Notes under the pieces: model-generated
What the model was told of the DNA's origin: nothing
The model's input: the letters and a program-made list of their open reading frames with translations, nothing else
The model's database searches: none
Source of the DNA: Patescibacteria group bacterium
Lineage (GTDB): Bacteria > Patescibacteriota > Minisyncoccia > Phycocordibacterales > UBA2100
Direction of reading: 5' to 3'
Assembly: GCA_038064535.1 (NCBI GenBank)
Contig: JBBTSX010000005.1
Location: 13,051 to 77,050, forward strand
Length of the DNA stretch: 64,000 nucleotides
Position numbers and translations under genes: made by a program
Shown here: positions 34,504 through 56,183 of the stretch, piece after piece
Position numbering within the stretch: position 1 is the stretch's first letter
How the letters are laid out: each line of letters starts with the position of its first letter

Positions 34504-37056
34504 ATGCAAACGATCCGTCAACCATTCTCCTCGCGCGGTATGATACTCAACATGACCCGCTCGCAGGCAGTCGGAGGGCTGCTCGTATTCGTAGCGATGT
34601 TCATGTTTGCCGGCGTTACCGACGCAGCCACGACCCCGCCCGACAACTCCAACACCTGTCCTGCATTCGGTAAGACGGGCAAAGGTGCGGAGAAACGCCC
34701 GTGCCGTCCGGGGAGCACGCACAAGGTGGCGTTCGGTGTCGGAGGAAAATATACGCCCGCGGTGGGTGTGAAATCGAGATGTCTCAGCGCAGAACAGGAG
34801 GCACAGTACATCAAGGAACACGGAGCGAGATGTACTGTGGAGTACTGCACACCGGCTCAAGACGGCAAAGAGAAGTGCACAAAGAAAACAGTCAAGATTG
34901 ACCTCAACAAACCGGACCCATACGGCGGAGTCTCCCCGTTCTCGCAACAAGCACAGGCCGACAGCACGCGGTTGGCCGCATACTCGGCGATGAACGATAC
35001 GGCCGCCGCGTACCGCGCGGGCGATACGGCAAAGGTTCAGGAGATTGCAAATCAGACAAAGGCCAATCCCGAGGTCAGCGCCCTCATCAACAGCGCGTTT
35101 TCAAACATCAAAACTACCACTGCGGGAGGTGCCCCCGTCGCTCTCAGCGACCAGGACAAACTCAACGCCGTTATTGCGAGTCTCGACCCGGAGCAGCCCA
35201 CCGTTGCTCAACAGCCCAAAAAAGACGTGGTGACTCCAAAGAGTGAAACCATTGCAGTCGACGTGACATTCGAAAAGCCCCCAAAAGAAACCGCAAACAT
35301 TCCGTGTCCCGCCGGTACACCCTGTGATGCGCCGGCGAAGACCACGGGTCCCGCATCCACCTTCCAGCCCGCCACTGAAGCGAACAAGAAAACGACGACA
35401 CAACCGGCTCAGCAAACGTCGTGGTGGAACACGGCCACCAACAAAGTGAGCGACTATCTTCCCGCTTCCGTGAACCGCTGGCTTGGTCTCGCCAATGCTC
35501 CGACGTTCCGGCCGTACGACCCCCAGACCGACGTGCCGCTTCTGGTGAAGGAAAGCGACTCGGCGTCTTTGAAAGACAAACCACATCTGGACCCATTCGA
35601 CACTGGGAGTCCCATTGTGCTCATGAACAAAGATGTAAGTGTCAGCGGTGGCGAAACTGCATTGCAAGCGATGACAAAGAGACAATCACAAGCTGTGCAG
35701 ACTGCGGACTTTGACCCGGACACGCCGGTCCCTTCCGGCGGCATTGTGGTCACGCCGCTTAGTGCAAACGGCACACCCGATATTGCCGCGTCAAAGGTGA
35801 TGGAAGTGGGAACGTGGAGAGATTTCCTCAACGAGGTGGGGAGCAACCGTGACTACGAGAAAACAGTTATATCGGTGAATATACCGGCTTCGGAGAAGAA
35901 GGCGGAGGCTCCCGCGGGGGTGGACGTCGTGACGACACCGTTCAATGATTTGCCGGCATCAGTGAAGGAAGTGTTTAAGAAACAAGATGAATTAAACAAA
36001 AGTACGATAGTGCCGCCGAGAGTGGCGGATAACCCGCCGCCGCCCGGTAAAGAAATACCGGTAACAGAAGCCGCCCCAGCGGGAAATCCGCAGGATAAAG
36101 ATGAGCCGGTGCCGCCGGCTCAACAACCGCCCACGCCAACCGTTGAACAACCAACGCCACCCACGCCCACGCCGCTTCCTCCCGTCCCCCCGGAGGTGTC
36201 CACGGAAGAACCTACTCCTCCGAAAGAACCGCCAAAGACCGAAGAGCCGAAGCCGGTGGAAGAAAAACCGGTTCAGCCGCCTATACCTATCCTCTCGTCG
36301 CCGACAAAATTAGCGGAATCCGTGCCCACGCCACTACCCGAACCGGAGCTGAAGGACAAACTCCCCACAACCGAAGAGCCGAAGAAAGAAAAACTCCCTA
36401 CGTCCGAACCGGCCGTTCAACCGACGCCGGAAACGCCTGACGACTGCAAGGGTAATATCGACTGCAGGCTCAATGCCCTCAAACAATGGGTGAAGGATTT
36501 GGATAGCCCAAAAGAGCCTCCGAAAGAATCTTCAGTGACCGCCCCGCCATCAGCATCGTCGCTAAACGACATTTTCAATCCATATCCCAAGCGACTTTTC
36601 GGCGAGTCCAATGAAGACTTTGACAAGAGGGTTGACGCATGGAGAGAGCGCTCGAACAGTCAGTCGTTAGAGAGTTTTATAAACAGCCGTGGCGGCCGAG
36701 TGGGTCAATGCGAAAGCTGTCACAATCCCCAGATGGGTGGCGGTGCCGGTCCGCAGACAGACTATGACGGTGTCGGAATCAGAATACAGTACGAAAGAAA
36801 AGAATTTGACGGGAAGGTTTCCCCCGGGGGAATGGTTCTCAGTGTATTCCCTAATACTCCGGCGGAGCGGGCGGGACTGCGGGCGGGCGACTTCTTGTTG
36901 AGTCTTGATAGAGGACGTACGTCTATGATCTCCGGATTTAGGGGGACCCCCGGCACGGCAATCGAAGTCAGGTATATACCGCAGGGCTCGACGGTACAGA
37001 GGACCATAACGGTTAAACGGGCAACCATCCAATGCAGTATCTACGGTTGCCCCTAA
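34504..37056 (+). CDS. large secreted Pro/Lys-rich protein with a C-terminal PDZ domain
   Basis: Signal peptide. Long PT/PE/PK low-complexity region. C-terminal GMVLSVFPNTPAERAGLRAGDFLLSLD PDZ-like segment. Confidence 0.6.
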   Translation: MQTIRQPFSSRGMILNMTRSQAVGGLLVFVAMFMFAGVTDAATTPPDNSNTCPAFGKTGKGAEKRPCRPGSTHKVAFGVGGKYTPAVGVKSRCLSAEQEAQYIKEHGARCTVEYCTPAQDGKEKCTKKTVKIDLNKPDPYGGVSPFSQQAQADSTRLAAYSAMNDTAAAYRAGDTAKVQEIANQTKANPEVSALINSAFSNIKTTTAGGAPVALSDQDKLNAVIASLDPEQPTVAQQPKKDVVTPKSETIAVDVTFEKPPKETANIPCPAGTPCDAPAKTTGPASTFQPATEANKKTTTQPAQQTSWWNTATNKVSDYLPASVNRWLGLANAPTFRPYDPQTDVPLLVKESDSASLKDKPHLDPFDTGSPIVLMNKDVSVSGGETALQAMTKRQSQAVQTADFDPDTPVPSGGIVVTPLSANGTPDIAASKVMEVGTWRDFLNEVGSNRDYEKTVISVNIPASEKKAEAPAGVDVVTTPFNDLPASVKEVFKKQDELNKSTIVPPRVADNPPPPGKEIPVTEAAPAGNPQDKDEPVPPAQQPPTPTVEQPTPPTPTPLPPVPPEVSTEEPTPPKEPPKTEEPKPVEEKPVQPPIPILSSPTKLAESVPTPLPEPELKDKLPTTEEPKKEKLPTSEPAVQPTPETPDDCKGNIDCRLNALKQWVKDLDSPKEPPKESSVTAPPSASSLNDIFNPYPKRLFGESNEDFDKRVDAWRERSNSQSLESFINSRGGRVGQCESCHNPQMGGGAGPQTDYDGVGIRIQYERKEFDGKVSPGGMVLSVFPNTPAERAGLRAGDFLLSLDRGRTSMISGFRGTPGTAIEVRYIPQGSTVQRTITVKRATIQCSIYGCP

Positions 37057-39136: not shown

Positions 39137-40828
39137 CTATGCAATCGTCTCGAGCATCACTTCATCATTGAGGTCTACAACGCGGGAGAGTTCGTCGAAC
39201 GAGGTAACGCCCTGCAAAATTTTCACCGCACCGTCTTGTGCCATGCGGCGGATGTTCTGATGCTTGGCTGCGTGCCAGATGTCGCGCTCGGACGACGTGT
39301 GACGCACGCATTCTTCGATTTCTCTGTCCATCAAAATCACTTCCACCACGGCGATGCGGCCCTTGTAGCCGAGGCCGCCGCATTTTTCGCAGCCCTTCGG
39401 TATCCACATCTGTTCGCGATTCGCGGGCAGGTCTTCGGTATGCGGGACATTTTTCAGCAGGAAATTCATTTTCTCAAGCACTTTGCCGGTAATCGGCGCG
39501 GCCTGCCTACAATTGGTGCAGAGTTTGCGCACGAGGCGCTGTGCCATCGCGGTCGTTACCGCCGCACCGAGCACCTCGGCCCCCACGCCCATGTCTATGA
39601 GTCGCGGGAAGGTACCGGCGGCGTCGTTGGTGTGGAGCGTTGAGAACACGAGGTGACCGGTGAGCGAGGCATGCACGGCGGTCGACGCCACTTCGGCATC
39701 GCGGATTTCGCCGACCATTATCACGTCGGGGTCTTGGCGCAATGTGCTACGCAAACCCTGTGCGAATGAATAGTCTTTGGAAACCTGTGTCTGCACGATA
39801 CCGGGGAGGTGATACTCGACCGGGTCTTCGATGGTGACGATTTTGATTTCCGGTTTGTGTACCTTGCGCAAGAATGCGTAGAGCGTCGTCGTCTTACCGC
39901 TACCGGTCGGGCCGGTGTTGAGAATCATGCCGTTTGGCTTCGCGATTTCGCGGTCGAAAATATCCATGAGGTATTTGTCGAAGCCGAGCGCCTCCATCGG
40001 GAGTGCGATAGTCGTCGGGTCGAGGAGACGCATGACGATGGTTTCCGCATACGAACCGGGCAAAACGCTAGTGCGTATCTCGACTTCTTTGCCGCCGACG
40101 ACGATGGAGAAGCGGCCGTCTTGTGCCGCATTTTTTATGTTGAGCTTGAGGCCTGACAAGAGTTTGAGACGGCTTGAGATGAGCGCATAGGTCGGTGTGT
40201 CGAATATCAGCACTTCGACAAGCACACCGTCGAGGCGATAGCGCATGCGCACGCCCACCTCTTCGGGCTCGAGGTGCACATCGGAGGCACCGAGCGAGAG
40301 CGCTCCGGCCATGATGATTTCCAGGACGCGCGATATGCGGTGCGTGTCTTTGCTCGCGGTGTGCGAATTGATTTCGACGCGCACATCGTCGAGTGTCTTG
40401 AGCTTCTGCAACATCTGCTGGATGGTGTCGTTGGAGAGCGTGAGGATGCCGGCTTCGGTCTCGGTGGCGTATGAAATATCGTGGAATCGGTCCCACGCAT
40501 GTTCGAGCGAGGCCTGCGAGACGATAAACCGCCGCGGTTCGTAGCCGAGATGCTCGAGGTCTTTGAGCACTTCCAGCGCGTCGGCGCGCTCAGGTGCGCG
40601 CATACCCACGAAGAGCAGTTTGTTCACTTTGTGGAACGGTGCCACCTCGGTTGCGCGCGCCTGCGCTTCGGGAACGAGGCGAAGCGCGTCGGTGTCGATG
40701 GATTTGTTCGTCAGGTCCACGTACTCGATGCCGTATTTGCCGGCAAGCATCGAGGCGAGCTGTTCCTCTTCCTTGGCGCGCAATTCACGCACCCGCTCCT
40801 CCTGCTTTTTCTCGTTGAACTGCGTCAT
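39137..40828 (-). CDS. pilB: type IV pilus/type II secretion assembly ATPase PilB/GspE
   Basis: Walker A GPTGSGKTT, Asp box, His box, tetracysteine CxxC...CxxC. ORF track 39137..41422 has a spurious 198-codon N-terminal extension; start re-picked at MTQFNEKK. Confidence 0.88.
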   Translation of the reverse strand: MTQFNEKKQEERVRELRAKEEEQLASMLAGKYGIEYVDLTNKSIDTDALRLVPEAQARATEVAPFHKVNKLLFVGMRAPERADALEVLKDLEHLGYEPRRFIVSQASLEHAWDRFHDISYATETEAGILTLSNDTIQQMLQKLKTLDDVRVEINSHTASKDTHRISRVLEIIMAGALSLGASDVHLEPEEVGVRMRYRLDGVLVEVLIFDTPTYALISSRLKLLSGLKLNIKNAAQDGRFSIVVGGKEVEIRTSVLPGSYAETIVMRLLDPTTIALPMEALGFDKYLMDIFDREIAKPNGMILNTGPTGSGKTTTLYAFLRKVHKPEIKIVTIEDPVEYHLPGIVQTQVSKDYSFAQGLRSTLRQDPDVIMVGEIRDAEVASTAVHASLTGHLVFSTLHTNDAAGTFPRLIDMGVGAEVLGAAVTTAMAQRLVRKLCTNCRQAAPITGKVLEKMNFLLKNVPHTEDLPANREQMWIPKGCEKCGGLGYKGRIAVVEVILMDREIEECVRHTSSERDIWHAAKHQNIRRMAQDGAVKILQGVTSFDELSRVVDLNDEVMLETIA

Positions 40829-40853
40829 TGTCCCTGTATTGTACACTGGCGGG

Positions 40854-41309
40854 ATGCAGAGGCGGACACATTCGGGCGAGCAATTGAAATCGTTTGCACA
40901 GGAGTACGTACGGACGCTGTCTCCGCGCTCATATGCGACAGTCGTTGCACTCTCCGGCGAGCTCGGGGCAGGGAAGACCACGTTTGTGCAGGGAGTGGCC
41001 GCGGCGCTTGGGGTGCAAGAAACAGTCGCAAGCCCGACGTTTGTTATAGAGAAAGTGTATGAACTGTCGAGGCAAAAATGGGAACGGCTCATACATATAG
41101 ATGCATACCGCCTGAAAAGCGCACACGAGCTCGAAGTTCTCGGCTGGAAAGAAATCACCGAGGACCCCGCGAACCTCATACTGCTGGAGTGGCCGGAACG
41201 CGTGGAAGAAGCGATACCGGATGAAGCAATACATATCCGTATAGACATCGAGGGCGACGGGCGTATCATCTCAATTGAACATGGCAAAAAAGACGGCGAA
41301 AAAAACTGA
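40854..41309 (+). CDS. tsaE: tRNA threonylcarbamoyladenosine biosynthesis protein TsaE
   Basis: GELGAGKTTFVQG P-loop and SPTF motif. Start re-picked downstream of the antisense overlap with pilB. Confidence 0.8.
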   Translation: MQRRTHSGEQLKSFAQEYVRTLSPRSYATVVALSGELGAGKTTFVQGVAAALGVQETVASPTFVIEKVYELSRQKWERLIHIDAYRLKSAHELEVLGWKEITEDPANLILLEWPERVEEAIPDEAIHIRIDIEGDGRIISIEHGKKDGEKN

Positions 41310-43746
41310 AACCTCGGGTAAAAAACTACGGCTCGTACTGCTCGACAGCCACGCGATATTGCACCGTGCGTATCACGCGCTGCCGGATTTCTCGTCGAGC
41401 AAGGGCGAACCGACGGGCGCACTCTACGGGCTCATTCTGATGCTCCTCAAAATCAAGAGCGATTTGAAGCCCGATTACATCGTCGCCGCGCGCGACTTGC
41501 CCGGCACGACGTATCGTCACGAATTGTTCGCGGACTACAAAGCGAAGCGGGTGAAAGCCGAAGACGAGCTCGTCGCACAGCTCAAGCGCGCGCCGAAAGT
41601 TTTTGAGGCATTCGGTATTCCCGTCTACCAGAAAGAAGGGTACGAGGCCGACGATGTGTTGGGTACCATTGTGAAAGAGCTTCGCGGGCGCTCCGATATC
41701 GAAACCATCATCGCCTCCGGCGACATGGACACGCTGCAGCTTGTGGGCGAGCGCGTAAAAGTATTCACCCTGCGCAAAGGTCTCTCGGATACGGTCATGT
41801 ACGACATCGACCGCGTGAAAGAGCGCTACGGATTCGGTCCGGAGTGTGTTGTCGATTACAAAGCACTGCGCGGTGACCCGTCCGACAACATCCCCGGCGT
41901 CAAAGGCATCGGCGAGAAAACTGCGACCGAGCTCATTCAGCAATTCGGCTCGGTGGATGCGATATACAAAGTGCTCAACAAGAATCCGAAAGAAATGGAG
42001 AAAGCCGGCGTGAAGCCGCGCGTCGTCGAGCTGTTGCGCGCGGGCAAGGAGAACGCCGCGTTTTCCAAACAGCTGGCGACCATTCACCCCGACGTGCCGA
42101 TACATTTCGCACTACCGGACCACAAGTGGGACATGCCCGAGCATGTCGCGACCATCGATGCGCTGTGCGACGAACTCGAATTCCGCTCGGTCAAAGAACG
42201 ACTGCACAGTGTGCTTCACAGCGGCGAAGCGAAAGCAGAATCTGCGGACGAGATGTCGGTGGACCCCGCGGCGCTCGAGGAGACGTCAGTCGCACTCTGG
42301 CTCCTGCGTAGCGACCTCACGAGCCCGACGCTCGACGATATCTTGCAGTATGCGGAAACAAAAGATTTTGAAGAGGCGCGGAAGAAAGTATTTGCCGACC
42401 TCAAGAAAACGGGACGTCTCGCCGACGTGTATGAGCACATAGAAAAGCCGCTTATTCCGGTCGTTCACCGTATGAACGAAACGGGTGTCTATATCGACGT
42501 AAAATATCTTGCGGGTCTTTCAAAAGAGTACGGAGATGAGCTCGGCAAAATCGCCGCACGCATCTACAAGCACGCGGGACACGAGTTCAATATCAATTCA
42601 CCCAAACAGCTTGGTGTCATTCTGTATGATGAGCTTAAGATAACGCCCGCAAAGCAGAAGAAAACGGCGACGGGCCTGCCTGTGCGGGCGGAAGTCCGCC
42701 GCACGCAGACAGGCGCGCGCACCACGCGCGAGGAAGAGCTCCAAAAGATGGCCGATTTGCATCCCGTCATCGCCGATATTTTGGCGTATCGCGAATTGCA
42801 GAAGCTTCTTTCGACCTACATCGAAAAAATCCCGCCGCTCATAGCGGAAGATAAGCGCCTGCACGCGCAATTTCTCCAAACAGGGACAGTGACCGGCCGT
42901 ATGGGATGTCAGGACCCGAACCTGCAGAACATTCCCATCCGCACGGAGTACGGCAAACGCATCCGTTCCGCATTCTCAGCCGAAAAAGGTTTCGTACTGG
43001 CGTCGATTGATTACTCGCAAATAGAACTTCGCATCGCGGCGGGTCTTTCGGGCGATGAAAACCTCGTGCGCGTATTCAAAGAGAGTCGCGACGTACACAC
43101 CGAAGTTGCGTCGAAAGTATTCAACGTGCCGGCGGACAAGGTGGATTATGAAATGCGGCGCAGGGCGAAAATAATCAACTTCGGCATTCTCTACGGCATG
43201 GGGGTCAATGCACTGCGCGCGAATTTGGGCGCTTCCGTTACACGCGACGAAGCGGCGCGTTACCTCGACGATTATTTCAAGAATTTTTCCGGACTCGCGC
43301 GTTTCATCGAGAAAACGAAAGCGGACGCCGCGCGGCTCGGCTACACCGAAACACTTTTCGGTCGCCGGCGGTATTTCAGCGGATTCAAATCTTCGTTGCC
43401 GGGTCTGCGTGCACAGGCGGAGCGCATGGCGATGAACGCGCCGATGCAGGGAACGCAGGCCGACATCATCAAGCTCGCGATGGTGGAGGCGGATGCGCTC
43501 ATCGAGAAAAACGGCTGGCGCGCCCCTTCGACGGGCTCAGGGCAGGCAAAAGTGCGGCTCCTGATGCAGGTGCACGACGAACTTGTCTACGAAGTTGATG
43601 AAAAAGAAGCGGAAAGCATTGCGCGTACACTGCGCGACGTGATGGAGAGTGTTGTCGACATTAAACTGTTGTCGGGTGTTCCTGTCGTTGCTGAAATTGC
43701 CATCGGGCCGGACTGGGGTAACGTGAAGAGGATAGAGCGTTCATAA
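41275..43746 (+). CDS. polA: DNA polymerase I
   Basis: 5'-3' exonuclease N-domain and a family A polymerase domain (DYSQIELR, QVHDELV). 823 aa. Confidence 0.92.
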   Translation: MNMAKKTAKKTETSGKKLRLVLLDSHAILHRAYHALPDFSSSKGEPTGALYGLILMLLKIKSDLKPDYIVAARDLPGTTYRHELFADYKAKRVKAEDELVAQLKRAPKVFEAFGIPVYQKEGYEADDVLGTIVKELRGRSDIETIIASGDMDTLQLVGERVKVFTLRKGLSDTVMYDIDRVKERYGFGPECVVDYKALRGDPSDNIPGVKGIGEKTATELIQQFGSVDAIYKVLNKNPKEMEKAGVKPRVVELLRAGKENAAFSKQLATIHPDVPIHFALPDHKWDMPEHVATIDALCDELEFRSVKERLHSVLHSGEAKAESADEMSVDPAALEETSVALWLLRSDLTSPTLDDILQYAETKDFEEARKKVFADLKKTGRLADVYEHIEKPLIPVVHRMNETGVYIDVKYLAGLSKEYGDELGKIAARIYKHAGHEFNINSPKQLGVILYDELKITPAKQKKTATGLPVRAEVRRTQTGARTTREEELQKMADLHPVIADILAYRELQKLLSTYIEKIPPLIAEDKRLHAQFLQTGTVTGRMGCQDPNLQNIPIRTEYGKRIRSAFSAEKGFVLASIDYSQIELRIAAGLSGDENLVRVFKESRDVHTEVASKVFNVPADKVDYEMRRRAKIINFGILYGMGVNALRANLGASVTRDEAARYLDDYFKNFSGLARFIEKTKADAARLGYTETLFGRRRYFSGFKSSLPGLRAQAERMAMNAPMQGTQADIIKLAMVEADALIEKNGWRAPSTGSGQAKVRLLMQVHDELVYEVDEKEAESIARTLRDVMESVVDIKLLSGVPVVAEIAIGPDWGNVKRIERS

Positions 43747-43748
43747 CC

Positions 43749-44420
43749 ATGCTGTATTTTTTCACCGGCACCGATACGGAAAAAGCGCGCGAGGCGATGA
43801 GCACCGCCGTCACAAAGACGAAACAAAAAAATATCGTCCGCATCACCGATGCGCACTCCGCCGCCGACCTTGATGCGGCGCTCGGGGGAGCGGGGATGTT
43901 CGGGGAAGATCGTGTCGTCGTTCTCGACAACGTGCTGGGGAACGATGAGTTGCGGGAGAGGCTTCTTGCCAGGCTCAAAGACTTTTCAAAGTCCGATGAT
44001 GTATTTTTTATGCTCGAGAGTGGCATAGATACGGATACGCGCAAATCGGTGGAGAAGTTTGCGGCAAAAACAGAACGGTTCGATGTGCCAAAAAGAGACC
44101 GCGACAACTCGATTTTCGCGCTCGCGAATGCACTGCAACGTGGACAACGCAAAGAGCTTTGGGTGGGTTACCAGCGGGAATTGCTCAAGGGGAGCGCGCC
44201 CGAGGCAATTCACGGGACGCTGTTTTGGGCCGCAAAACAAGCGTTTTTGCGCTCCGACACCCCCCGCAGTCGCAAACTCGTGGCACAGCTCGCCGAGCTT
44301 CCTCATGAAGCCCGCCGCAAGGGATTTGACCTCGAATATGCGCTCGAGCACTTTGTGCTGTCGCGGGCCTGCCCCGCACCAAAATCAGCCTATTCTGGGC
44401 CGAGGAAGAGTAGCCATTAG
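43749..44420 (+). CDS. possible DNA polymerase III delta subunit HolA-like protein (short)
   Basis: Weak resemblance of the N-terminus to HolA; the call rests mainly on position after polA. Confidence 0.35.
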   Translation: MLYFFTGTDTEKAREAMSTAVTKTKQKNIVRITDAHSAADLDAALGGAGMFGEDRVVVLDNVLGNDELRERLLARLKDFSKSDDVFFMLESGIDTDTRKSVEKFAAKTERFDVPKRDRDNSIFALANALQRGQRKELWVGYQRELLKGSAPEAIHGTLFWAAKQAFLRSDTPRSRKLVAQLAELPHEARRKGFDLEYALEHFVLSRACPAPKSAYSGPRKSSH

Positions 44421-44498: not shown

Positions 44499-45800
44499 AT
44501 GACCTCTGTAACCCGAGCGCCTCTGTTTTTTGTGGCGGTCTTTTTCGTAGGTACATTGCTCCTTTTGTTTGTGCCAAATCGAACAGACGCTCTTGGATTA
44601 GATGCGGATAAAATGTGTAATCCCGTCATCCTGCAGTGTGGGTGCGGACAAATAATGGGTCCAAAAGGTTGTATCGGCGGTCCCAACATGTGGAAATGTC
44701 CGTGCTACGACACGACGAACACATTTGGTTCCAGCGGAATATGTGTTGCGCCCATGAAATGTTTAGCGCAATCCACCGGCGGGCCCGATGGGTTCGGACT
44801 CGACATTGTTAAATCAATGCTCGGCGAGCTGATGAAAAAGCTCATGCAACAGGGTAGTGGTGGCGGGGGTGGCGGCGGGGGTGGCACCGGCACAGGTATC
44901 GACGGCACAACAGGTCCGACCGGTTGCGGCTCATACGTCGCGACATCCGACGTCACACAAGTTTCCACGTCCAACACCGGAGGAGTTTGCTACTACTATC
45001 AGTCATCGGTCTCGGACCTGCTCGGTGGGAACGATACGACCAACGGCAACGGGTTGAGTCTGTCCGACCAACTCAATGCACTCACCGACTCCAATGCAAA
45101 CACGCTTACCAACAACAATGCCAACACGAGTAGTACTCTTAATCGTCAGTTGAACGAGCGCGCCGCTACCTCCACACCGACAACTACGCGGACAATTTTG
45201 ACACAAGGCGTTCAGGGGGGTCTCATGTCGGGAATTCGGGGCGACATGCAGGTCCTCGGCAACGGGGTCACCATTCTCGCAGCCTCGGTGGACGCGCAGG
45301 GCAACAGCAGCACTGCCGGATTCTACGGTGCGAGCTCCGTCACGGGTCAGCCGGTGAGTACGATAGTAAATCTCTGCAAGGGCCGCCCGTGGTCGAAACA
45401 TATGCTCTCGTATGCACTCCCGCCGACGTTCTTTGACAGTCTGTGTATCATGCGCGGCTATTCAGTGGGTACCGCACAAGCCGCCGCGCCAAGCGTCAAA
45501 ATAGTGCAGAAGATTGCTACATCGAGCGCCACCACGACGCCTCCCGTCCTGCCGCCGAAAGTCGATATCTGGGCGGTGCCGGCATCTGTGCCGCTCGGCT
45601 CGCGTGCGTCGGTATTCTGGACCTCGCAGGGAGTGAAGGACTGCACGATTACGTCGCCCGACGGCGCCTTCTCCCAAGCAGCTCCCTCCGGAAGCGCTTC
45701 GACGGTGGCACTCACGAAGACGACGACATTCACTATCTCCTGCACCGCACCGGACGGAAAGCCGGTCAACAAGTCGGTAACAGTGAACCTTTCGCAGTAA
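44499..45800 (+). CDS. secreted Cys-containing protein with poly-Gly run, family member 1
   Basis: Signal peptide. GLDIVKSMLGELMKKLMQQG then G9. C-terminal 140 aa nearly collinear with the 45947 ORF. Confidence 0.6.
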   Translation: MTSVTRAPLFFVAVFFVGTLLLLFVPNRTDALGLDADKMCNPVILQCGCGQIMGPKGCIGGPNMWKCPCYDTTNTFGSSGICVAPMKCLAQSTGGPDGFGLDIVKSMLGELMKKLMQQGSGGGGGGGGGTGTGIDGTTGPTGCGSYVATSDVTQVSTSNTGGVCYYYQSSVSDLLGGNDTTNGNGLSLSDQLNALTDSNANTLTNNNANTSSTLNRQLNERAATSTPTTTRTILTQGVQGGLMSGIRGDMQVLGNGVTILAASVDAQGNSSTAGFYGASSVTGQPVSTIVNLCKGRPWSKHMLSYALPPTFFDSLCIMRGYSVGTAQAAAPSVKIVQKIATSSATTTPPVLPPKVDIWAVPASVPLGSRASVFWTSQGVKDCTITSPDGAFSQAAPSGSASTVALTKTTTFTISCTAPDGKPVNKSVTVNLSQ

Positions 45801-45900
45801 ACCCCGTTAGAAGCTCACGCGAGGCATTGGTTCTGCGTCCGCAATCTTTTTGCGTTCATCCCCGCGGCAAGCAGTGGGGCGCCCTGCTTCTAACGGGGTA
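45801..45900. repeat. palindromic intergenic element, copy 7 (ACCCCGTTAGAAGCTC ... CTGCTTCTAACGGGGTA) between the two Gly-run paralogs
   Basis: Starts immediately after the TAA stop of the 44499 gene. Confidence 0.85.
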
Positions 45901-45946
45901 AAAGAAGTTCTCTGTATACAACAGGGTACGTTGCACTCCCGCGGGC

Positions 45947-47671
45947 GTGCTACTATTTAGTGACATGAGTACGGTGCACAAAGTTGCTCTAGGCACATTT
46001 CTCGTTTTTGGTTTCGCGCTAACGGCATTTGCCCTCCTGCCGGTCTCGGTCACTGCGCAAAATCTCGGCAGTCCCGAGGACATCCGCTGCGTGAAAGAGT
46101 GCGCGGTCGCCGCGTCGAAGAAAAAACCGTGTCCCACGCCCACGAAAATTGTGTGTCATGTTACGGTAAACGGCGGCACTTCTTTCGGGTTTTGCATGCC
46201 CAACGGCTGCAAGGCAACGGGCTATGGTGGCGGCGGGGGAGGTTCGGGCAACGTCGGACTCGACTTGATCAAGCAGGTTCTCGGCAGTCTGATGCAAAAA
46301 CTCATGCAAGGGGGTCAGGGAAGTGGAAGCGGCAGTGGAAGCGGTTCGGGTTCGGGCGGCACCCCCATAAACACGACTCAGCCGACCTGCTCGCTTACGT
46401 CCACGACAGACTCTACCGACGCCTCAAGTACAAAAGCGACACTATCGTGGACATCTTCATATGATGTGACAAGCGCAACAATCAGTCCGGACATTGGTTC
46501 TGTCTCGCCGAATGGTTCCCAACAGGTTACCGTCACAAGTGCCCTCGGCATCTACAGTATGACGGTGACGGGGCCCGGCGGAACGGGGGCATGCTACAAA
46601 ACCATTTCCGGTCCCGGCGGCGGAGGTGAGTGCGATGCCGTCAGTCAGGCGCTGGGTCTGTGCGGAGGAGGTGGTGGAGGTGCGGACACTACGACGGGGG
46701 ATTTGAGTGTCGAAACCTCGACGGGCGAAGTGCCGTTCCAGGCGGTGTTCTCGGTATCCGCCGGTGCATGCCGAACGGCCGATCTGTTGCTCAACTACGG
46801 CGACGGAAGTTCTCCCGTGACGGTGTTTGTGGCGAATGAGACAACCATGCCCGGCACGTGCACGGGCGACTCCATTTCCGCTTCGCCGGAGCACGCGTAT
46901 CACAATCCCGGCTCGTACACGGCAGAGCTCACTAATTCCGTAAGCCGCGCTTCGGTATCGTCGGTCAACATCACGGCGACTACTCCCGCCAATTCCTCAA
47001 ATAACAACAATGGAAGAACGATTACATCTACACCGAGCAGCACTCTACCGGTCATCGTGCCGCAGGGCGTGATACAAGGACTTACGTCGGGTGTGAGCGG
47101 CGATATCCGGATACTCGGAAACAGCGGGACGATTCTCGCGGGTTCGGTGGACCCGGGAGGCAACAGTGTCACTGCCGGTTTCTTCGGCTCCAACACCTTC
47201 ACCGGCCAGCCGACCGGAGTCATCGCTAATCTTTGCAAGAGCCGTCCGTGGGCGGGCAATATCCTCTCGTACATCCTTCCGGCGACATTCTTTGACAGCC
47301 TGTGCGTGCTGCGCGGCTATCAGGTGGGTACGCCGAAGCCGGCCGCCCCGACCGTCACCGTATTCCAAAGTGCACCCAAAAAAGTGACGAAGACACCCGT
47401 CGCGACGACGACACCCGCCGTCCCACCGAAAGTCGATATCTGGGCGGTGCCCTCTTCCGTGCCCTTGGGCTCGCGCACGTCGGTATTCTGGAGTTCGCAG
47501 GGCGTGACGAACTGCACCGAAACATCACCCGACGGTAGCTTCTCGCAGAACACGCTCTCCGGCGGCGCTTCTACGGTCGCTCTCACCGGCGCGACGACGT
47601 TTACGATGTCCTGCATCGCTCCCGACGGCTCACACGTGACGGACTACGTGACGGTGAACCTCTCGATCTAG
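45947..47671 (+). CDS. secreted Cys-containing protein with Gly/Ser run, family member 2 (tandem paralog)
   Basis: GLDLIKQVLGSLMQKLMQGG then (GS)n. C-terminal LCKSRPWAGNILSYILPATFFDSLCVLRGYQVG... matches the previous gene. Confidence 0.6.
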   Translation: MLLFSDMSTVHKVALGTFLVFGFALTAFALLPVSVTAQNLGSPEDIRCVKECAVAASKKKPCPTPTKIVCHVTVNGGTSFGFCMPNGCKATGYGGGGGGSGNVGLDLIKQVLGSLMQKLMQGGQGSGSGSGSGSGSGGTPINTTQPTCSLTSTTDSTDASSTKATLSWTSSYDVTSATISPDIGSVSPNGSQQVTVTSALGIYSMTVTGPGGTGACYKTISGPGGGGECDAVSQALGLCGGGGGGADTTTGDLSVETSTGEVPFQAVFSVSAGACRTADLLLNYGDGSSPVTVFVANETTMPGTCTGDSISASPEHAYHNPGSYTAELTNSVSRASVSSVNITATTPANSSNNNNGRTITSTPSSTLPVIVPQGVIQGLTSGVSGDIRILGNSGTILAGSVDPGGNSVTAGFFGSNTFTGQPTGVIANLCKSRPWAGNILSYILPATFFDSLCVLRGYQVGTPKPAAPTVTVFQSAPKKVTKTPVATTTPAVPPKVDIWAVPSSVPLGSRTSVFWSSQGVTNCTETSPDGSFSQNTLSGGASTVALTGATTFTMSCIAPDGSHVTDYVTVNLSI

Positions 47672-47687
47672 ACTTTCTCACACACAC

Positions 47688-47722
47688 AAAACACCTGCCG
47701 CAGGGCAGGTGTTTTTGTCTTT
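47688..47722 (+). terminator. intrinsic terminator ACACCTGCCGCAGGGCAGGTGT + TTTTGTCTTTGTGG
   Basis: Hairpin plus a T-rich tail 17 nt after the stop of the 45947 gene. Confidence 0.65.
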
Positions 47723-49022: not shown

Positions 49023-49991
49023 TCAGTAGCTTATTGCGGCAACCGTGCGCCCTTGTGCATCGAGGAGGCGGATGATGTCGTGCTGATTATCCCAAAGCTC
49101 GGAAGCGGACGAGAGGTAGATGCGCCACGTGTCGAGCTCAAACGACGACCGCGAGCGCTCGATGTCGACGCAGTTGCTGTAGGTAAATGTGTTCACGAGG
49201 TATGCGCGGCAACCCGGCGTGAGCGAGGAGGGAAGATTGGTCGGGAAACTGCATTGTGGCAGTGAGCGGGCAAAATCCATACAGTCGCTTCCGTACTGGT
49301 GCAAGTTCTCCGCTGTAAGCGGGGCCAGTTCGGAAGATGCGGGGCACGCATTTGCAAGCGAAGGCTCGAACGACTGCACCTGTTCCAAAAATCCCGTACA
49401 GCGGTTCTCGCGGAATGAAACGCCGACGGGCGAGGGACCTGTCACGACGAGCGCGGAGTGTCCCGGAGAGAGCACGACGGGCGAGAGCTGATTCACGACA
49501 CCGATAATAAACGGTGCAGCCGCTCCGGGGATGGGGACGCGTACGCCGCTTACCATGCTCTGTAGCGACCATCCCGTGAGCGGGACGGCCGATATGCCTT
49601 CGCGCGCATCGAGCCCAATGTATTCGTGGGCGGTGCCGCTCTCCGTCGCGTTTGCCTGCGAGAGTGTGACCATGCCGCGATAGGGCGAGGGTACCCCGTA
49701 CGACGTTTGCGCCGTAGCACCGGTAGTCCCGCTTTGTTCGTCCGGCGTTTGGTCGAGCTGGGCATCGCCTGCGTCGGTGAGGCCCGAGATGTCAGGTCCC
49801 TGCGGGATGGCTTGTTGCCACGGCAGATTTATCTGATACGTCGACGTCGCATTGCCCCAGATGATGTCAAGGGGATTCGGAATGGTGCGTACGAAGTTCC
49901 TGACGCTGGTAAATCCGCCGGCCCATAGCCACAGGAGGATGAGCAGAATAACGGCCGAGATGAGTACCCACTTGATGACGGTCCGTATCAT
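49023..49991 (-). CDS. hypothetical membrane-anchored extracellular protein (downstream of murE)
   Basis: Start re-picked at MIRTVIKWVLISAVILLILLWLWAGG, a TM anchor. Confidence 0.5.
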   Translation of the reverse strand: MIRTVIKWVLISAVILLILLWLWAGGFTSVRNFVRTIPNPLDIIWGNATSTYQINLPWQQAIPQGPDISGLTDAGDAQLDQTPDEQSGTTGATAQTSYGVPSPYRGMVTLSQANATESGTAHEYIGLDAREGISAVPLTGWSLQSMVSGVRVPIPGAAAPFIIGVVNQLSPVVLSPGHSALVVTGPSPVGVSFRENRCTGFLEQVQSFEPSLANACPASSELAPLTAENLHQYGSDCMDFARSLPQCSFPTNLPSSLTPGCRAYLVNTFTYSNCVDIERSRSSFELDTWRIYLSSASELWDNQHDIIRLLDAQGRTVAAISY

Positions 49992-49998
49992 ATCCGCA

Positions 49999-51285
49999 TT
50001 ATACCCGCCGGGCGGCGCCCCCCGCGACGAGCCTCTTGAGCTCCTCCTGCGTGACCCTGATGTCGCTCCACGGGATTTTCGCACCGTCCGGCGCGCTGAC
50101 TTCCGTGTCTATTCCCATACCGGTGATGAGCACCGCAACATCTTTGCGGACTGTGTGACTCTGCGCGAGTTCGAGTGCGCGGCGTATTGCGGCGCGTCTG
50201 TCCAAAATAATTTCCGGTTTCGTGCTCATGTCGCGGGCGATGTCGTCGGCGATTTTTTTCGGATTCTCATCATATGCGATGTCGTTCGTCACGATGACTG
50301 TTTCGCAATAGGTCCCGGCAAGCTTCCCGAGCACCGGACGTTTCCACTTGTCGCGTCCCCCGCCGGTGCATCCGAATACGCAGATTTTTTTCGCCGAACC
50401 GAACGTCTTGTACAAAGCCTCGAGTGCTTCCGGCGTGAGCGCGTAGTCCACGATGACCGAAAACTCCTGCCCTGCGTCAATGCGGTCCATACGGCCGGGG
50501 ATTTTTGTTACTCGCGCGATGCCTTTTTGTATCGCGTCCACTCCGATACCGAGTGCGTGAGCCAATTCCGCTGCTGCGAGCGCGTTTTTGATATAAAACT
50601 GACCGCCGAGCTTGACGGACATTTCGGTGCCCTCGAAGGTGAAGGTGCCGCCGCGTTCATCGGCTTTCCACGGCGTCTGTTTGCCCAGAGAAAATGCGCG
50701 CCGTTTTTCCGCGCGGAGTGCGAGATAGCGGGCACCCTGCGAGTCGTCACCGTTTGCGACGATAATACGCGGCCGTTTACCCGACCTCTCCAGTGCACGG
50801 CCGATTTCGAACTTCGCGTCCGCGTAGGCCGCAAATGACCCGTGCGATTCTATATGCTCCGGCGAGAGATTGGTGAACACGAGCGCGTCCAGCTCAATTC
50901 CGCGGTGCCGGTACTGCTTGACTCCCTCCGAGGTCATTTCGACTATTGCTACGGTACAGCCGCTTTGGAGTGCGCGGCGGAAGAATCGTTGGATAAAAAA
51001 CCTGCCGGGCATGGAGCGGCCGGTCGACGGCAGAGAATGAGCGTCGATTTTGACCCGGATGGAATTCGACATGGCCGTCTTGTATCCGGCTGTCTCGAAT
51101 ATCGCGTTGATATATTCGGCGGTCGAGGACTTACCATCCGTTCCGGTGATACCGATGACGGTGAGTTTGCGCGACGGGAATCCGTACACAAGCGCACCGA
51201 GCATCGCGAGGCAGAAGTGATATGCCGAGAGCAGTGGTCGCGGCACAAATCGTCTTACAAATTTCTTGATGCCGGACATGTTCAT
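49999..51285 (-). CDS. murE: Mur ligase, probably UDP-N-acetylmuramoyl-L-alanyl-D-glutamate--2,6-diaminopimelate ligase MurE
   Basis: GITGTDGKSST P-loop and DYALTPEAL (MurE DYAHTP-like) motif. Confidence 0.8.
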   Translation of the reverse strand: MNMSGIKKFVRRFVPRPLLSAYHFCLAMLGALVYGFPSRKLTVIGITGTDGKSSTAEYINAIFETAGYKTAMSNSIRVKIDAHSLPSTGRSMPGRFFIQRFFRRALQSGCTVAIVEMTSEGVKQYRHRGIELDALVFTNLSPEHIESHGSFAAYADAKFEIGRALERSGKRPRIIVANGDDSQGARYLALRAEKRRAFSLGKQTPWKADERGGTFTFEGTEMSVKLGGQFYIKNALAAAELAHALGIGVDAIQKGIARVTKIPGRMDRIDAGQEFSVIVDYALTPEALEALYKTFGSAKKICVFGCTGGGRDKWKRPVLGKLAGTYCETVIVTNDIAYDENPKKIADDIARDMSTKPEIILDRRAAIRRALELAQSHTVRKDVAVLITGMGIDTEVSAPDGAKIPWSDIRVTQEELKRLVAGGAARRV

Positions 51286-55285: not shown

Positions 55286-55506
55286 CTTTTGTGCTGGGCG
55301 GAGCGATGCCGAGCCAACGGGCGAGGCCGCGAGCCGGGGCCTGCGACCGAGCTTTGCGACGGCAAAGCGAGAGTCGTGGGCCACTGTGTGCTGGGCGGAG
55401 CGTTGTGAGGCAAGCGTGCCGAACCGTGATCCGAGGTCGGGGAATTTTGATTGCGACGGCAATCAAAATATCCGTGACCACAAACAGCTACAGAGAAGAA
55501 TACTTA

Positions 55507-55540
55507 ATAACAAACTTGTCCGACCGGACGAGTTTGTTAT
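55507..55540. repeat. 34-bp palindromic repeat ATAACAAACTTGTCCGACCGGACGAGTTTGTTAT, left copy flanking the PaaX-like gene
   Basis: Near-identical copy at 56150-56183 (one mismatch). Confidence 0.8.
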
Positions 55541-55554
55541 GTTACGATGGGCCC

Positions 55555-56145
55555 ATGGGCATTGAGAAGCGGGTGGCCGTGCGCGCTCGCAGGGGCGAGA
55601 TCAAAAATGCCGTTCTTCAAGTTGCAGCTCTCGCTGGGTTACTTTCTATTGCTTTTGTCGCCCCCAATGTGCCAAAAGTTATTCCACGAAGCCTGCTTAA
55701 TAAGGTGTTTGGTCGCTCGCGGAGTGCAAGAGACGTGACCGTGAGTCGTTTGCTGAAGGATGGATTGCTTGCGGTGGAAATGCGCGATGGTACGCGGATG
55801 TTACGCATAACCGAGAAAGGGAAGCGATATCTCGCAAAAACAAAGTTACGCGCCGCGAATGTGCCGCGGCGGTGGGACCGTCGATGGCGCGTTGTCATAT
55901 TCGACATCAAGGAGCATAGGCGGCATGTTCGTAGGAATTTAAGAAGTGAGCTTCAGGCGTATGGATTCTACCGATTGCAGGACAGCGTATGGGTGTTCCC
56001 ATATGCGTGTGAGGATTTTATCGCGCTTCTCAAGGCCGACCTACATGTCGGAAAGGATATTTTGTATCTTGTGGCCGAGGAGGTCGAAAACGAGCGTCAT
56101 TTGAGAGATTATTTTGGCATAGGAACTGGCGGCCGCTCTGCATGA
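55555..56145 (+). CDS. PaaX-family-like transcriptional regulator
   Basis: C-terminal WDRRWRVVIFDIKEHRRHVRRNLRSELQAYGFYRLQDSVWVFP resembles the PaaX_C fold. Start re-picked at MGIEKR inside ORF 55291..56145. Confidence 0.55.
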   Translation: MGIEKRVAVRARRGEIKNAVLQVAALAGLLSIAFVAPNVPKVIPRSLLNKVFGRSRSARDVTVSRLLKDGLLAVEMRDGTRMLRITEKGKRYLAKTKLRAANVPRRWDRRWRVVIFDIKEHRRHVRRNLRSELQAYGFYRLQDSVWVFPYACEDFIALLKADLHVGKDILYLVAEEVENERHLRDYFGIGTGGRSA

Positions 56146-56149
56146 GGAA

Positions 56150-56183
56150 ATAACAAACTTGTCCGACCGGACAAGTTTGTTAT
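56150..56183. repeat. 34-bp palindromic repeat ATAACAAACTTGTCCGACCGGACAAGTTTGTTAT, right copy
   Basis: Perfect 14-bp arms; direct repeat of 55507-55540. Confidence 0.8.

Follow-up and report, generated by a model that had tools for sequence, protein, structure and literature searches.

A family of predicted exported proteins in Patescibacteria in which variable heads are exchanged over a conserved base

We analyzed a stretch of 64,000 nucleotides from the genome of a Patescibacteria group bacterium (hereafter, the window), concentrating on two adjacent genes of its forward strand, A (positions 44499–45800, an open reading frame (ORF) of 433 amino acids) and B (45947–47671, 574 amino acids if read from its GTG), and on a third forward-strand gene, C (56339–58984, 881 amino acids). 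A previous reading of this DNA from its letters alone (hereafter, the sequence-only reading) had proposed ORFs at these three positions, and all three are present. In the family to which A and B belong, an N-terminal cysteine-rich region, the head, is exchanged wholesale while the rest of the protein, the base, is kept, and the junction lies at a glycine run and an adjoining helix both in this family and in the separate family of C. Head and base thus evolve independently, which is a new result. The swapping of a variable front end over a retained back end suggests that these may be cell-surface recognition proteins. The reading that we favor, with a probability of roughly 50%, is that A and B are envelope or surface proteins presenting exchangeable heads, with a base that would bind either the envelope of the cell itself or a conserved partner.

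Heads are exchanged while the base is kept

The closest relative of the window is a locus of Kaiserbacteria RIFCSPHIGHO2_02_FULL_55_25 (L005), which likewise carries a tandem pair of family genes. The two A genes are about 90% identical throughout. In the region of the B genes, DNA homology breaks off over 45802–46253, a segment that comprises the spacer between A and B, the signal peptide and the head. Homology returns at 46254, two bases before the first codon of the helix, and from there to the stop codon the identity is 82%. The cysteine-rich head of B (46058–46255, forward strand) is therefore not orthologous to the head of B in L005.

Substitution rates between the two loci bear on how this difference arose. 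The ratio of nonsynonymous to synonymous rates (omega) is 0.07 for the head of A and 0.16 for the whole gene; for the base of B, from the helix onward, it is 0.13. We rejected relaxed constraint on the heads in view of the value for the head of A, and this purifying selection indicates that the heads are functional. For the head of B, the nonsynonymous divergence (dN) is 0.86 and the synonymous divergence (dS) is saturated; this dN indicates a head that was replaced rather than relaxed.

The same pattern is seen across the family. Among 97 pairs of members that are at least 70% identical in their two C-terminal folded domains (the mid and immunoglobulin-like (Ig-like) domains described below), the helices are on average 58% identical and the heads only 32%. 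Over 12,090 pairs, each part being aligned independently, the identities of head and base are uncorrelated (Spearman coefficient 0.04). The exchange is also visible in the other direction: heads are at least 55% identical in 104 pairs, and in 45 of these the bases are less than 55% identical. Moreover, each of the five tandem pairs found (5/5) carries two different head types on the same cassette of helix and glycine run. In the family of gene C, the C protein is 24% identical to the homolog P0062 over residues 61–420 and 90–95% identical from the glycine run onward; for another homolog, P0063, the corresponding values are 21% before the run and about 80% after it.

We considered whether the heads might be targets of a diversity-generating retroelement. 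A direct-repeat scan of the window recovered only the paralogy between the C-terminal parts of A and B. There is no direct repeat of head DNA in the window, although no search was aimed at reverse transcriptase, and the lack of a head copy resembling a template repeat argues against this explanation.

An unannotated family fixed behind polA and holA

A word-indexed search with B returned 59 relatives, all of them unnamed or called "hypothetical", and those with organism names all come from Patescibacteria, Paceibacterota or Kaiserbacteria. A search with a family profile against 1.84 billion representative sequences found at least 285 clusters (at 50% identity) with E-values of 1e-30 or better, nearly all matching over their full length. 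In a scan of 185,579 genomes, one per species, the family is present in 69. The labels of these 69 nearly all denote Patescibacteria lineages, chiefly Kaiserbacteria, Paceibacterota or Parcubacteria, and about 20 automatically labelled assemblies that carry the family bear the name Saccharibacteria. In these searches, we see the family only in Patescibacteria of the Kaiserbacteria/Paceibacteria type.

The family gene is usually single-copy, with tandem pairs in only 5 of 69 loci. Directly upstream of A lies a holA-like ORF (43749–44420, forward strand), which matches TIGR01128 (holA) with an E-value of 2.7e-10, below the curated cutoff. In 60 of the 60 loci that hold a holA-like ORF, the family gene directly follows this ORF in the same orientation, and polA comes before the ORF. 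The family gene is a core gene of its clade, fixed behind polA and holA.

Scans of A, B and C against Pfam, NCBIfam, PHROGs and PADLOC gave nothing above threshold, a profile search of PDB sequences returned only linker artefacts, and fold searches (below) placed the family no better. The description of this family as uncharacterized, made in the sequence-only reading, therefore holds for all of these resources. Our search of the literature found no paper on it. To judge from the resources searched, the family itself, its orphan mid domain, its linkage to polA–holA and the junction cassette with a variable head that it shares with the C family appear not to have been described. Exported, modular proteins that combine Ig-like domains with one variable end are, as a kind, already familiar.

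Architecture of the A and B proteins

We derived the architecture of the family from an alignment of 164 sequences and an AlphaFold2 model of A. The signal peptide of A (residues 1–31; 44499–44591, forward strand) has a hydrophobic core followed by an AxA-type site, with cleavage predicted between ...TDA and LG. Of the 164 aligned sequences, 142 have Ala at position -1 of this signal-peptidase I site, and 119 have A, V, S or T at -3. The signal peptides proposed earlier are thus borne out, for the A/B family, by conservation of the cleavage site. The head that follows in A (residues 32–98; 44592–44792, forward strand) is beta-rich, with modeled strands at 51–93, and has eight Cys residues. Cys residues in the family are even in number and conserved as pairs, and C69, C82 and C88 are invariant in the head, which is the least conserved of the folded parts. 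A search for homologs of the head alone yielded only two fragments.

The head is followed by an amphipathic helix, GLDIVKSMLGELMKKLMQ in A (residues 100–117; 44796–44849, forward strand; modeled as helix at 101–117; hydrophobic moment 0.45) and GLDLIKQVLGSLMQKLMQ in B (46256–46309, forward strand). Next come a run of nine glycines in A (44859–44885, forward strand), which the model gives a confidence (pLDDT) of about 30, i.e., disordered, and a (GS)6G run in B (46319–46357, forward strand). The G9 run lies within a G/S-rich linker (residues ~119–141 of A). In the family, this linker has a median length of 20 residues and ranges from 0 to 57, and it is Pro-rich in some members.

The remainder of A consists of a Cys hairpin (residues 142–170; GC..YY.VS.PSSDPCAYY), a disordered N/T/S-rich spacer (171–242), the mid domain (243–324; 45225–45470, forward strand), a second, P/T-rich linker (325–352) and a C-terminal Ig-like beta-sandwich (353–433; 45555–45797, forward strand) with a pLDDT of about 90. 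Both the mid domain and the Ig-like domain are strongly conserved across the family. The mid domain is predicted to have three strands and three helices with a disulfide between C293 and C316, a pair that is conserved; R296, P297, F311, F312 and D313 are invariant, and W298 is nearly so. Modeled alone, this domain has a pLDDT of 77.8 and a predicted TM score of 0.62. Foldseek found no significant neighbor for it (best E-values of 0.22 in PDB and 0.046 in BFVD), so we regard it as an orphan fold. With full-length A, Foldseek recovers only Ig-like folds (SoxY/Z, PKD and alpha-2-macroglobulin domains), at E-values of around 1e-3.

B is a long-type member and A a short-type member. The start of B is more likely the ATG at 45965, which would give 568 amino acids, than the GTG. 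Relative to A, it carries an insert in its spacer (46379–46966, forward strand) with one repeat of the Ig-like type and a domain resembling a diverged PKD (NYGDGS...HAY...GSY). The first repeat is matched by the homolog P0057, and another homolog, P0013, is positive for PF00801/PF18911. The match of B to PKD_4 has an E-value of 0.035 and scores 14.6 bits, against a Pfam gathering cutoff of 27, and A and C have no PKD match. Because no score reaches the threshold, A, B and C are not Pfam PKD proteins, and the similarity is at the level of the fold only. The mid domain of B (47087–47329, forward strand) and its C-terminal Ig-like domain (47426–47668, forward strand) match profile hidden Markov models (HMMs) of these domains with E-values of 1.9e-39 and 2e-46. 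Downstream of the gene is a strong hairpin resembling an intrinsic terminator (47688–47715, forward strand), with a 12-bp stem and a T-rich tail.

By BLASTP, the C-terminal 233 amino acids of A and B are 59% identical (E-value 7e-85) and the N-terminal 122 amino acids, which include the motif GLD(I/L)(V/I)K..LG.LM.KLMQ, are 33% identical (E-value 2e-5). These values confirm the tandem paralogy that had been claimed for the pair, and on this sequence comparison we take A and B to be true tandem paralogs. Both also show the collinear, full-length order of the family: head-core Cys residues, helix, Cys hairpin, mid domain and Ig-like domain.

An extracytoplasmic location of A and B is well supported as a prediction, given the signal-peptidase I site, the conserved Cys pairs and the Ig-like domain. 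The sequence-only reading had suggested a check for sortase/LPXTG or other anchoring signals. The C-termini of A, B and C (...VTVNLSQ, ...VTVNLSI and ...PFTISS) lack an LPXTG-like motif with a hydrophobic segment and basic tail, the only matches being internal VPLGS sequences within folded domains, and we rejected sortase substrates on these grounds. None of the three proteins has a C-terminal transmembrane segment or a Pfam wall-binding module. We rejected a bacterial lipoprotein, as there is no lipobox: the AxA site is followed by xGxxADAxC, in which the first Cys lies about nine residues past the cleavage site. A double-glycine leader of the class II bacteriocin type was also rejected; the helix ending in GG is internal (residues 100–120), with a Sec signal peptide and a domain of 67 residues ahead of it.

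Possible roles of the A/B proteins

In the reading that we favor, Sec export would deliver a disulfide-bonded modular protein with an exchangeable, Cys-rich head and a constant base. The base would comprise a leucine-zipper-like helix between Gly/Ser linkers, the Cys hairpin, the N/T/S-rich spacer, the orphan alpha/beta domain and the Ig-like domain, and would tether the protein either to the envelope of the producing cell or to some conserved partner. Heads would be replaced wholesale by recombination with a junction at the helix, and the flexible tether would present a lineage-specific head for recognition of a host or ligand. In such a protein, the Gly runs may act as hinges and the helix as an element for packing or oligomerization. 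The C family would follow the same plan, with a variable N-terminal part, a Gly run and helix, and a constant part that includes a homologous Ig-like domain. We infer surface retention, the binding role and the role of the helix; the surface or adhesin-like role proposed in the sequence-only reading seems plausible.

Several observations weigh against this reading. With no LPXTG motif, transmembrane tail, lipobox or Pfam wall-binding module to retain them, the proteins could simply be released. It is also unusual for an adhesin to be encoded by a core, single-copy gene and to have a very conserved C-terminal part. The head is N-terminal, and as the N-terminus in the C family may be a membrane anchor, the variable part could lie next to the membrane. 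Homology between the helices of the A/B and C families is not significant. Finally, our representative sequences were dereplicated at 50% identity and heads are difficult to align, so that the apparent decoupling of head and base is inflated.

The alternative that survives best, although we consider it rather unlikely, is that the proteins are structural components of the envelope (e.g., a spacer, a wall-associated protein or an S-layer accessory) without any recognition role, and that the differences between heads are accidents of recombination. Such a role would agree with a core, mostly single-copy gene in strict synteny beside housekeeping genes, with the strong conservation of the mid and Ig-like domains and with purifying selection on all parts. 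However, a purely structural protein would not be expected to have its head replaced repeatedly while its base stays 80–95% identical, nor would tandem duplicates be expected always to keep different heads.

Surface proteins built on these principles are known. Streptococcal M proteins and the MSCRAMM adhesins of the Sdr-Clf type, with their Ser-Asp repeat stalks, are wall-anchored adhesins with a variable N-terminus and a conserved C-terminus. Like A and B, they have a signal peptide, exchange their N-terminal part by recombination while keeping the C-terminal part, and have low-complexity stalks, for which the counterparts in A and B are (GS)n and N/T/S-rich stretches. In contrast to them, A and B lack LPXTG, a hydrophobic tail, a charged end and a long coiled-coil rod, their repeats are very short, they are Cys-rich, and they are encoded by a core syntenic gene rather than an accessory virulence gene. 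Ig-like/PKD surface proteins (PF00801/PF18911, Big) offer a second comparison. The C-terminal sandwich of A matches the ColG PKD domain and SoxY/Z (Foldseek E-values of around 1e-3, TM scores of at most 0.70 on the target), and the insert of B carries a PKD signature, as does its Pfam-positive homolog. However, these proteins have no counterpart to the head, the helix cassette or the mid domain.

Another possibility is that A and B are secreted, membrane-active or toxin-like effectors, with the head and the cationic helix being freed (e.g., by cleavage of the Gly linker) to act on host membranes as amphipathic antimicrobial peptides do. Much about the helix might suggest this: it is the segment with the highest hydrophobic moment in both A and B (0.42–0.46 among A, B and C), it contains Lys, it is bordered by disordered Gly linkers, and it resembles the frog peptides aurein and citropin (GLFDIIKK...); the lack of an anchor signal would also fit. 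However, the most conserved positions (L101, V104, L108, L111 and L115, in addition to G109) form a narrow a/d stripe with 3–4 heptad spacing, not a broad hydrophobic face, and the mean hydrophobicity is low (0.13–0.31 among the three proteins). This idea would also leave the large, conserved C-terminal part without a role, and neither a protease site nor an immunity gene nor a toxin domain was found. We therefore judge it improbable. A further comparison is with the in-plane amphipathic-helix anchors at the C-terminus of E. coli penicillin-binding proteins (PBPs) 5 and 6. What A and B have in common with these, and with aurein and citropin, is that an amphipathic helix, short and containing Lys, is bordered by flexible residues, in A and B within an exported protein. 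In A and B, however, the helix is internal rather than terminal, and its conserved positions follow the heptad stripe. Packing of the helix against another helix or a domain probably fits this stripe better than does a broad membrane-binding face.

A role as an accessory of a type IV or competence pilus (e.g., associated with its tip or base) is still less probable. In the window, as in three relatives, the gene upstream of polA encodes a PilB-type ATPase (T2SSE + MshEN) and is divergently oriented, and some loci also hold genes for pilin and PilM no more than about 10 kb away. However, pilus genes are common throughout these small genomes, and the ATPase gene is on the other strand, with polA–holA between it and the family gene. 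We also rejected A and B as type IV pilins or pseudopilins themselves. They have a signal-peptidase I site and no N_methyl match in Pfam, and none of A, B and C has a class III (prepilin) signal, i.e., G followed by FTLxE.

The last set of alternatives concerns the Gly and GS runs. The sequence-only reading had assigned G9 to A and (GS)6 to B, which is correct, the latter as (GS)6G, and G13 + G7 to C, where the runs are G11 and G7. B has two further G6 runs. In a six-frame translation of the window, runs of at least five Gly or at least three GS units occur in no ORFs other than A, B and C. Their codons are a mixture of GGN (in A, GGT, GGC and GGG) and AGY/TCN and form neither a homopolymer nor a long perfect repeat, and TRF reports only 12-nt units at 1.9–2.4 copies in the three runs (2.4 in A). 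The run in B is identical in L005; the run in A differs there by one S-to-G change and one indel of a single amino acid (G9 in the window, G11 in L005). The earlier suggestion that GGN repeats here are prone to length variation is therefore weak. A search for length variants of the runs gave 0 matches among JGI metagenome contigs, in which the sequence of the window itself is also absent. Considering the mixed codons, the short TRF units, the near-identity to L005 and the Pro-rich alternatives, we read the runs as probable flexible linkers that drift in length, with no sign of a contingency mechanism. That they are contingency tracts switching or tuning expression by phase or length is hardly credible: the 12-nt units in all three runs, the 0–57-residue range of the linker and the change from G9 to G11 might hint at it, but all observed changes are in frame, the run of B is unchanged in a relative whose DNA is about 82% identical, and neither the mixed codons nor the Pro-rich linkers of other members agree with it.

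Little is known of how ultrasmall Patescibacteria recognize and attach to partner cells, as the abstract of PMC12206443 states explicitly for episymbionts. The A/B family is a concrete candidate for host recognition in this group, also called the candidate phyla radiation (CPR), in that it is core, exported, and has heads kept within a lineage and swapped between lineages. Its constant base contains a central domain without a structural match in PDB or BFVD, and both the A/B and C families are unannotated families that could be added to domain databases.

Gene C represents a separate family with a similar plan

The sequence-only reading had taken C to be a third member of the family of A and B. 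This view did not survive comparison of the families. When full-length profiles of A/B and C are aligned with hhalign, only the Ig-like domain aligns (residues 346–429 of A with 656–745 of C; probability 93%, E-value 3.3e-7). In the reciprocal direction, an HMM of the C Ig-like domain matches dozens of A/B members at E-values of 1e-6 to 1e-9, and the domain in C (58304–58573, forward strand) matches the A/B Ig-like HMM at 2.9e-8, which confirms its homology to the C-terminal domain of A and B. Because only this domain matches, C is not a member of the A/B family; the two families have in common the Ig-like domain and a parallel architecture of Gly run and helix.

The evidence on the helix is more equivocal. 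The sequence-only reading had described a helix motif shared by the three proteins and adjoining a Gly run. A run does abut the segment in A, B and C. Between the families, the motif itself could not be recovered with statistical support. For A and B, whose sequences are GLDIVK and GLDLIK, the pattern proposed for the motif is too long by one residue. An hhalign comparison of the helix motif alone places 18 columns in register (P = 0.006). An HMM of the C-family motif has residues 94–119 of A as its best non-self match in the window, with an independent E-value of only 0.42, and an A/B motif HMM used in the reverse direction did not find C.

The C family consists of 18 clusters. Its members have a conserved hydrophobic segment, RGSS(V/I)LAAL, in the N-terminal part, followed in order by a variable, Cys-containing region of about 360 residues, a Gly run with L..LLGGLAKGL, conserved Q/Y heptads, a module rich in Cys and two Ig-like domains; a further C-terminal domain is optional. 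We rejected the N-terminal segment as a class III pilin signal, since RG-SS(V/I)LAAL has no Glu at +5. Regarding the start of C itself, whose sequence is identical to MEK7601156.1, NCBI uses M10 and the family consensus points to M22 at 56402. The runs G11 (57602–57634) and G7 (57659–57679) precede the amphipathic segment FNDIMKAILGGLAKGLAQ (57680–57733, forward strand), which is predicted to be a helix from its sequence (hydrophobic moment 0.42) and is the segment kept in the family as L..LLGGLAKGL.

Between this segment and the Cys-rich module lies a stretch (residues ~478–512; 57770–57874, forward strand) with three copies of QQYNYQL, which is encoded by a 21-nt tandem repeat of 2.8 copies according to TRF. 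The sequence-only reading had called it a prion-like Gln/Asn-rich stretch; what we find instead is a conserved heptad motif of Q and Y. As the Q and Y columns are invariant across the C family, this is not mere low complexity, and we interpret it as a probable conserved, extracellular, zipper-like motif.

C-family genes share a syntenic block with the A/B gene, a few kb downstream of it; in at least 11 loci, their position in this block is downstream of rpsT. It is tempting to speculate that the cassette of Gly run and zipper helix is a dedicated junction that marks the boundary of recombination at which Kaiserbacteria would exchange heads for host recognition on a base bound to the envelope, and that pairing of helices joins A/B-type and C-type proteins into a hetero-oligomeric, episymbiotic attachment structure. 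We regard this idea as quite unlikely, but, if true, the structure would be a previously unseen attachment organelle for a large clade of the CPR. Two unknown proteins adjoining the C-family gene in one locus (L004) were considered as further members of the C family and rejected.

Just upstream of C, a 35-nt palindrome, AATAACAAACTTGTCCGACCGGAC(G/A)AGTTTGTTAT, is present in two copies that are 97% identical (55506–55540 and 56149–56183). They flank an ORF resembling PaaX/Cas2 (55291–56145), whose true start is probably near 55552. These palindromes could be an operator pair or terminators.

A MITE-like element between A and B

The sequence-only reading had noted a palindromic element between A and B, and this element is real. 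It extends from 45801 to 45899, without an assigned strand, and begins one base past the stop codon of A. Its terminal inverted repeats are perfect over 14 bp (ACCCCGTTAGAAGC at 45801–45814 and GCTTCTAACGGGGT at 45886–45899), with flanks of AA on both sides, and its predicted fold has a free energy of -49 kcal/mol (z -3.96). The arm occurs 14 times in the window with at most two mismatches, compared with 0.24 expected. Six inverted pairs of arms are found (1698/1795, 3124/3243, 5087/5219, 16406/16487, 45801/45899 and 61818/61875), whose interiors differ between copies and span 30–110 nt.

At least 119 metagenome contigs, the majority of them from groundwater, carry the exact pair of arms; copies outside the window include those at L044 8153–8230 and in L075–L154. 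The consensus of the terminal repeat is (A/G)CCCCGTTAGAAGC, with a length of 14 bp. In 93 of 141 copies (66%), the bases flanking (A/G)CCCC...GGGG(T/C) form an identical 2-bp direct repeat, compared with about 6% expected. Copies in the subclass of the window's element are 97–103 nt long with a mean identity of 85% across contigs, and have an invariant closing stem, two inner hairpins and a few compensatory changes. There is no Rfam match.

Given terminal repeats, dispersed copies and a 2-bp target duplication, we classify the element from its sequence features as resembling a miniature inverted-repeat transposable element (MITE), one that is widespread and not specific to this locus. The A–B spacer of L005 lacks it, but the flanking homology is too short for a clean proof of an empty site. 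We found no autonomous element and no transposase between distant terminal-repeat arms. An attC site was considered and rejected, as the arms read GTT...AAC, the reverse of the order generally described for attC. The element is similar to known MITEs and REP-type elements (Correia of Neisseria, RUP/BOX, REP/BIME) in being about 55–135 nt long, non-coding and dispersed, and in having conserved terminal inverted repeats, variable interiors, an intergenic location and a target-site duplication; copies often lie directly after stop codons. It differs from known MITEs in that its 2-bp duplication is not specific to TA and its hosts appear to be groundwater Patescibacteria. Our search of the literature found no paper on MITEs in CPR bacteria. 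The element points to active or recent transposition in groundwater genomes that are likely Patescibacteria.

One copy (L085 2116–2218) lies inside a long reverse-strand ORF (1611–2726) resembling trigger factor, and reads through as ...NPVRSPREAL.... The copy in the window translates to a similar peptide in an ORF at 45443–45901. Genes may accommodate the element in frame in their coding sequence; alternatively, the ORF may have been miscalled.

Neighboring genes

In the window, the genes around A, B and C are housekeeping genes, namely dnaA, dnaN, a PBP gene, ruvB, the pilB-type ATPase gene, polA, a SpoU methylase gene, a Mur ligase gene, ruvA and rpsT. The PilB-type ATPase (39137–41422, reverse strand) has 761 amino acids, compared with about 563–570 in relatives; either it has an extra N-terminal extension of about 190 amino acids or its GTG start was called too far upstream. 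Between the SpoU methylase and Mur ligase genes, a reverse-strand gene (49023–50084) encodes a conserved exported protein with a sub-threshold match to the lamin-tail domain (LTD). The gene, located between A/B and C, keeps this position throughout the syntenic block, with orthologs in L001, L003 and L004. For three consecutive large ORFs (29460–31709, 32118–34478 and 34504–37056; 749, 786 and 850 amino acids), the only Pfam result was a sub-threshold match to PDZ in the third, and all three lack the Ig-like, mid and head modules of the A/B family. They may encode further unannotated envelope proteins.

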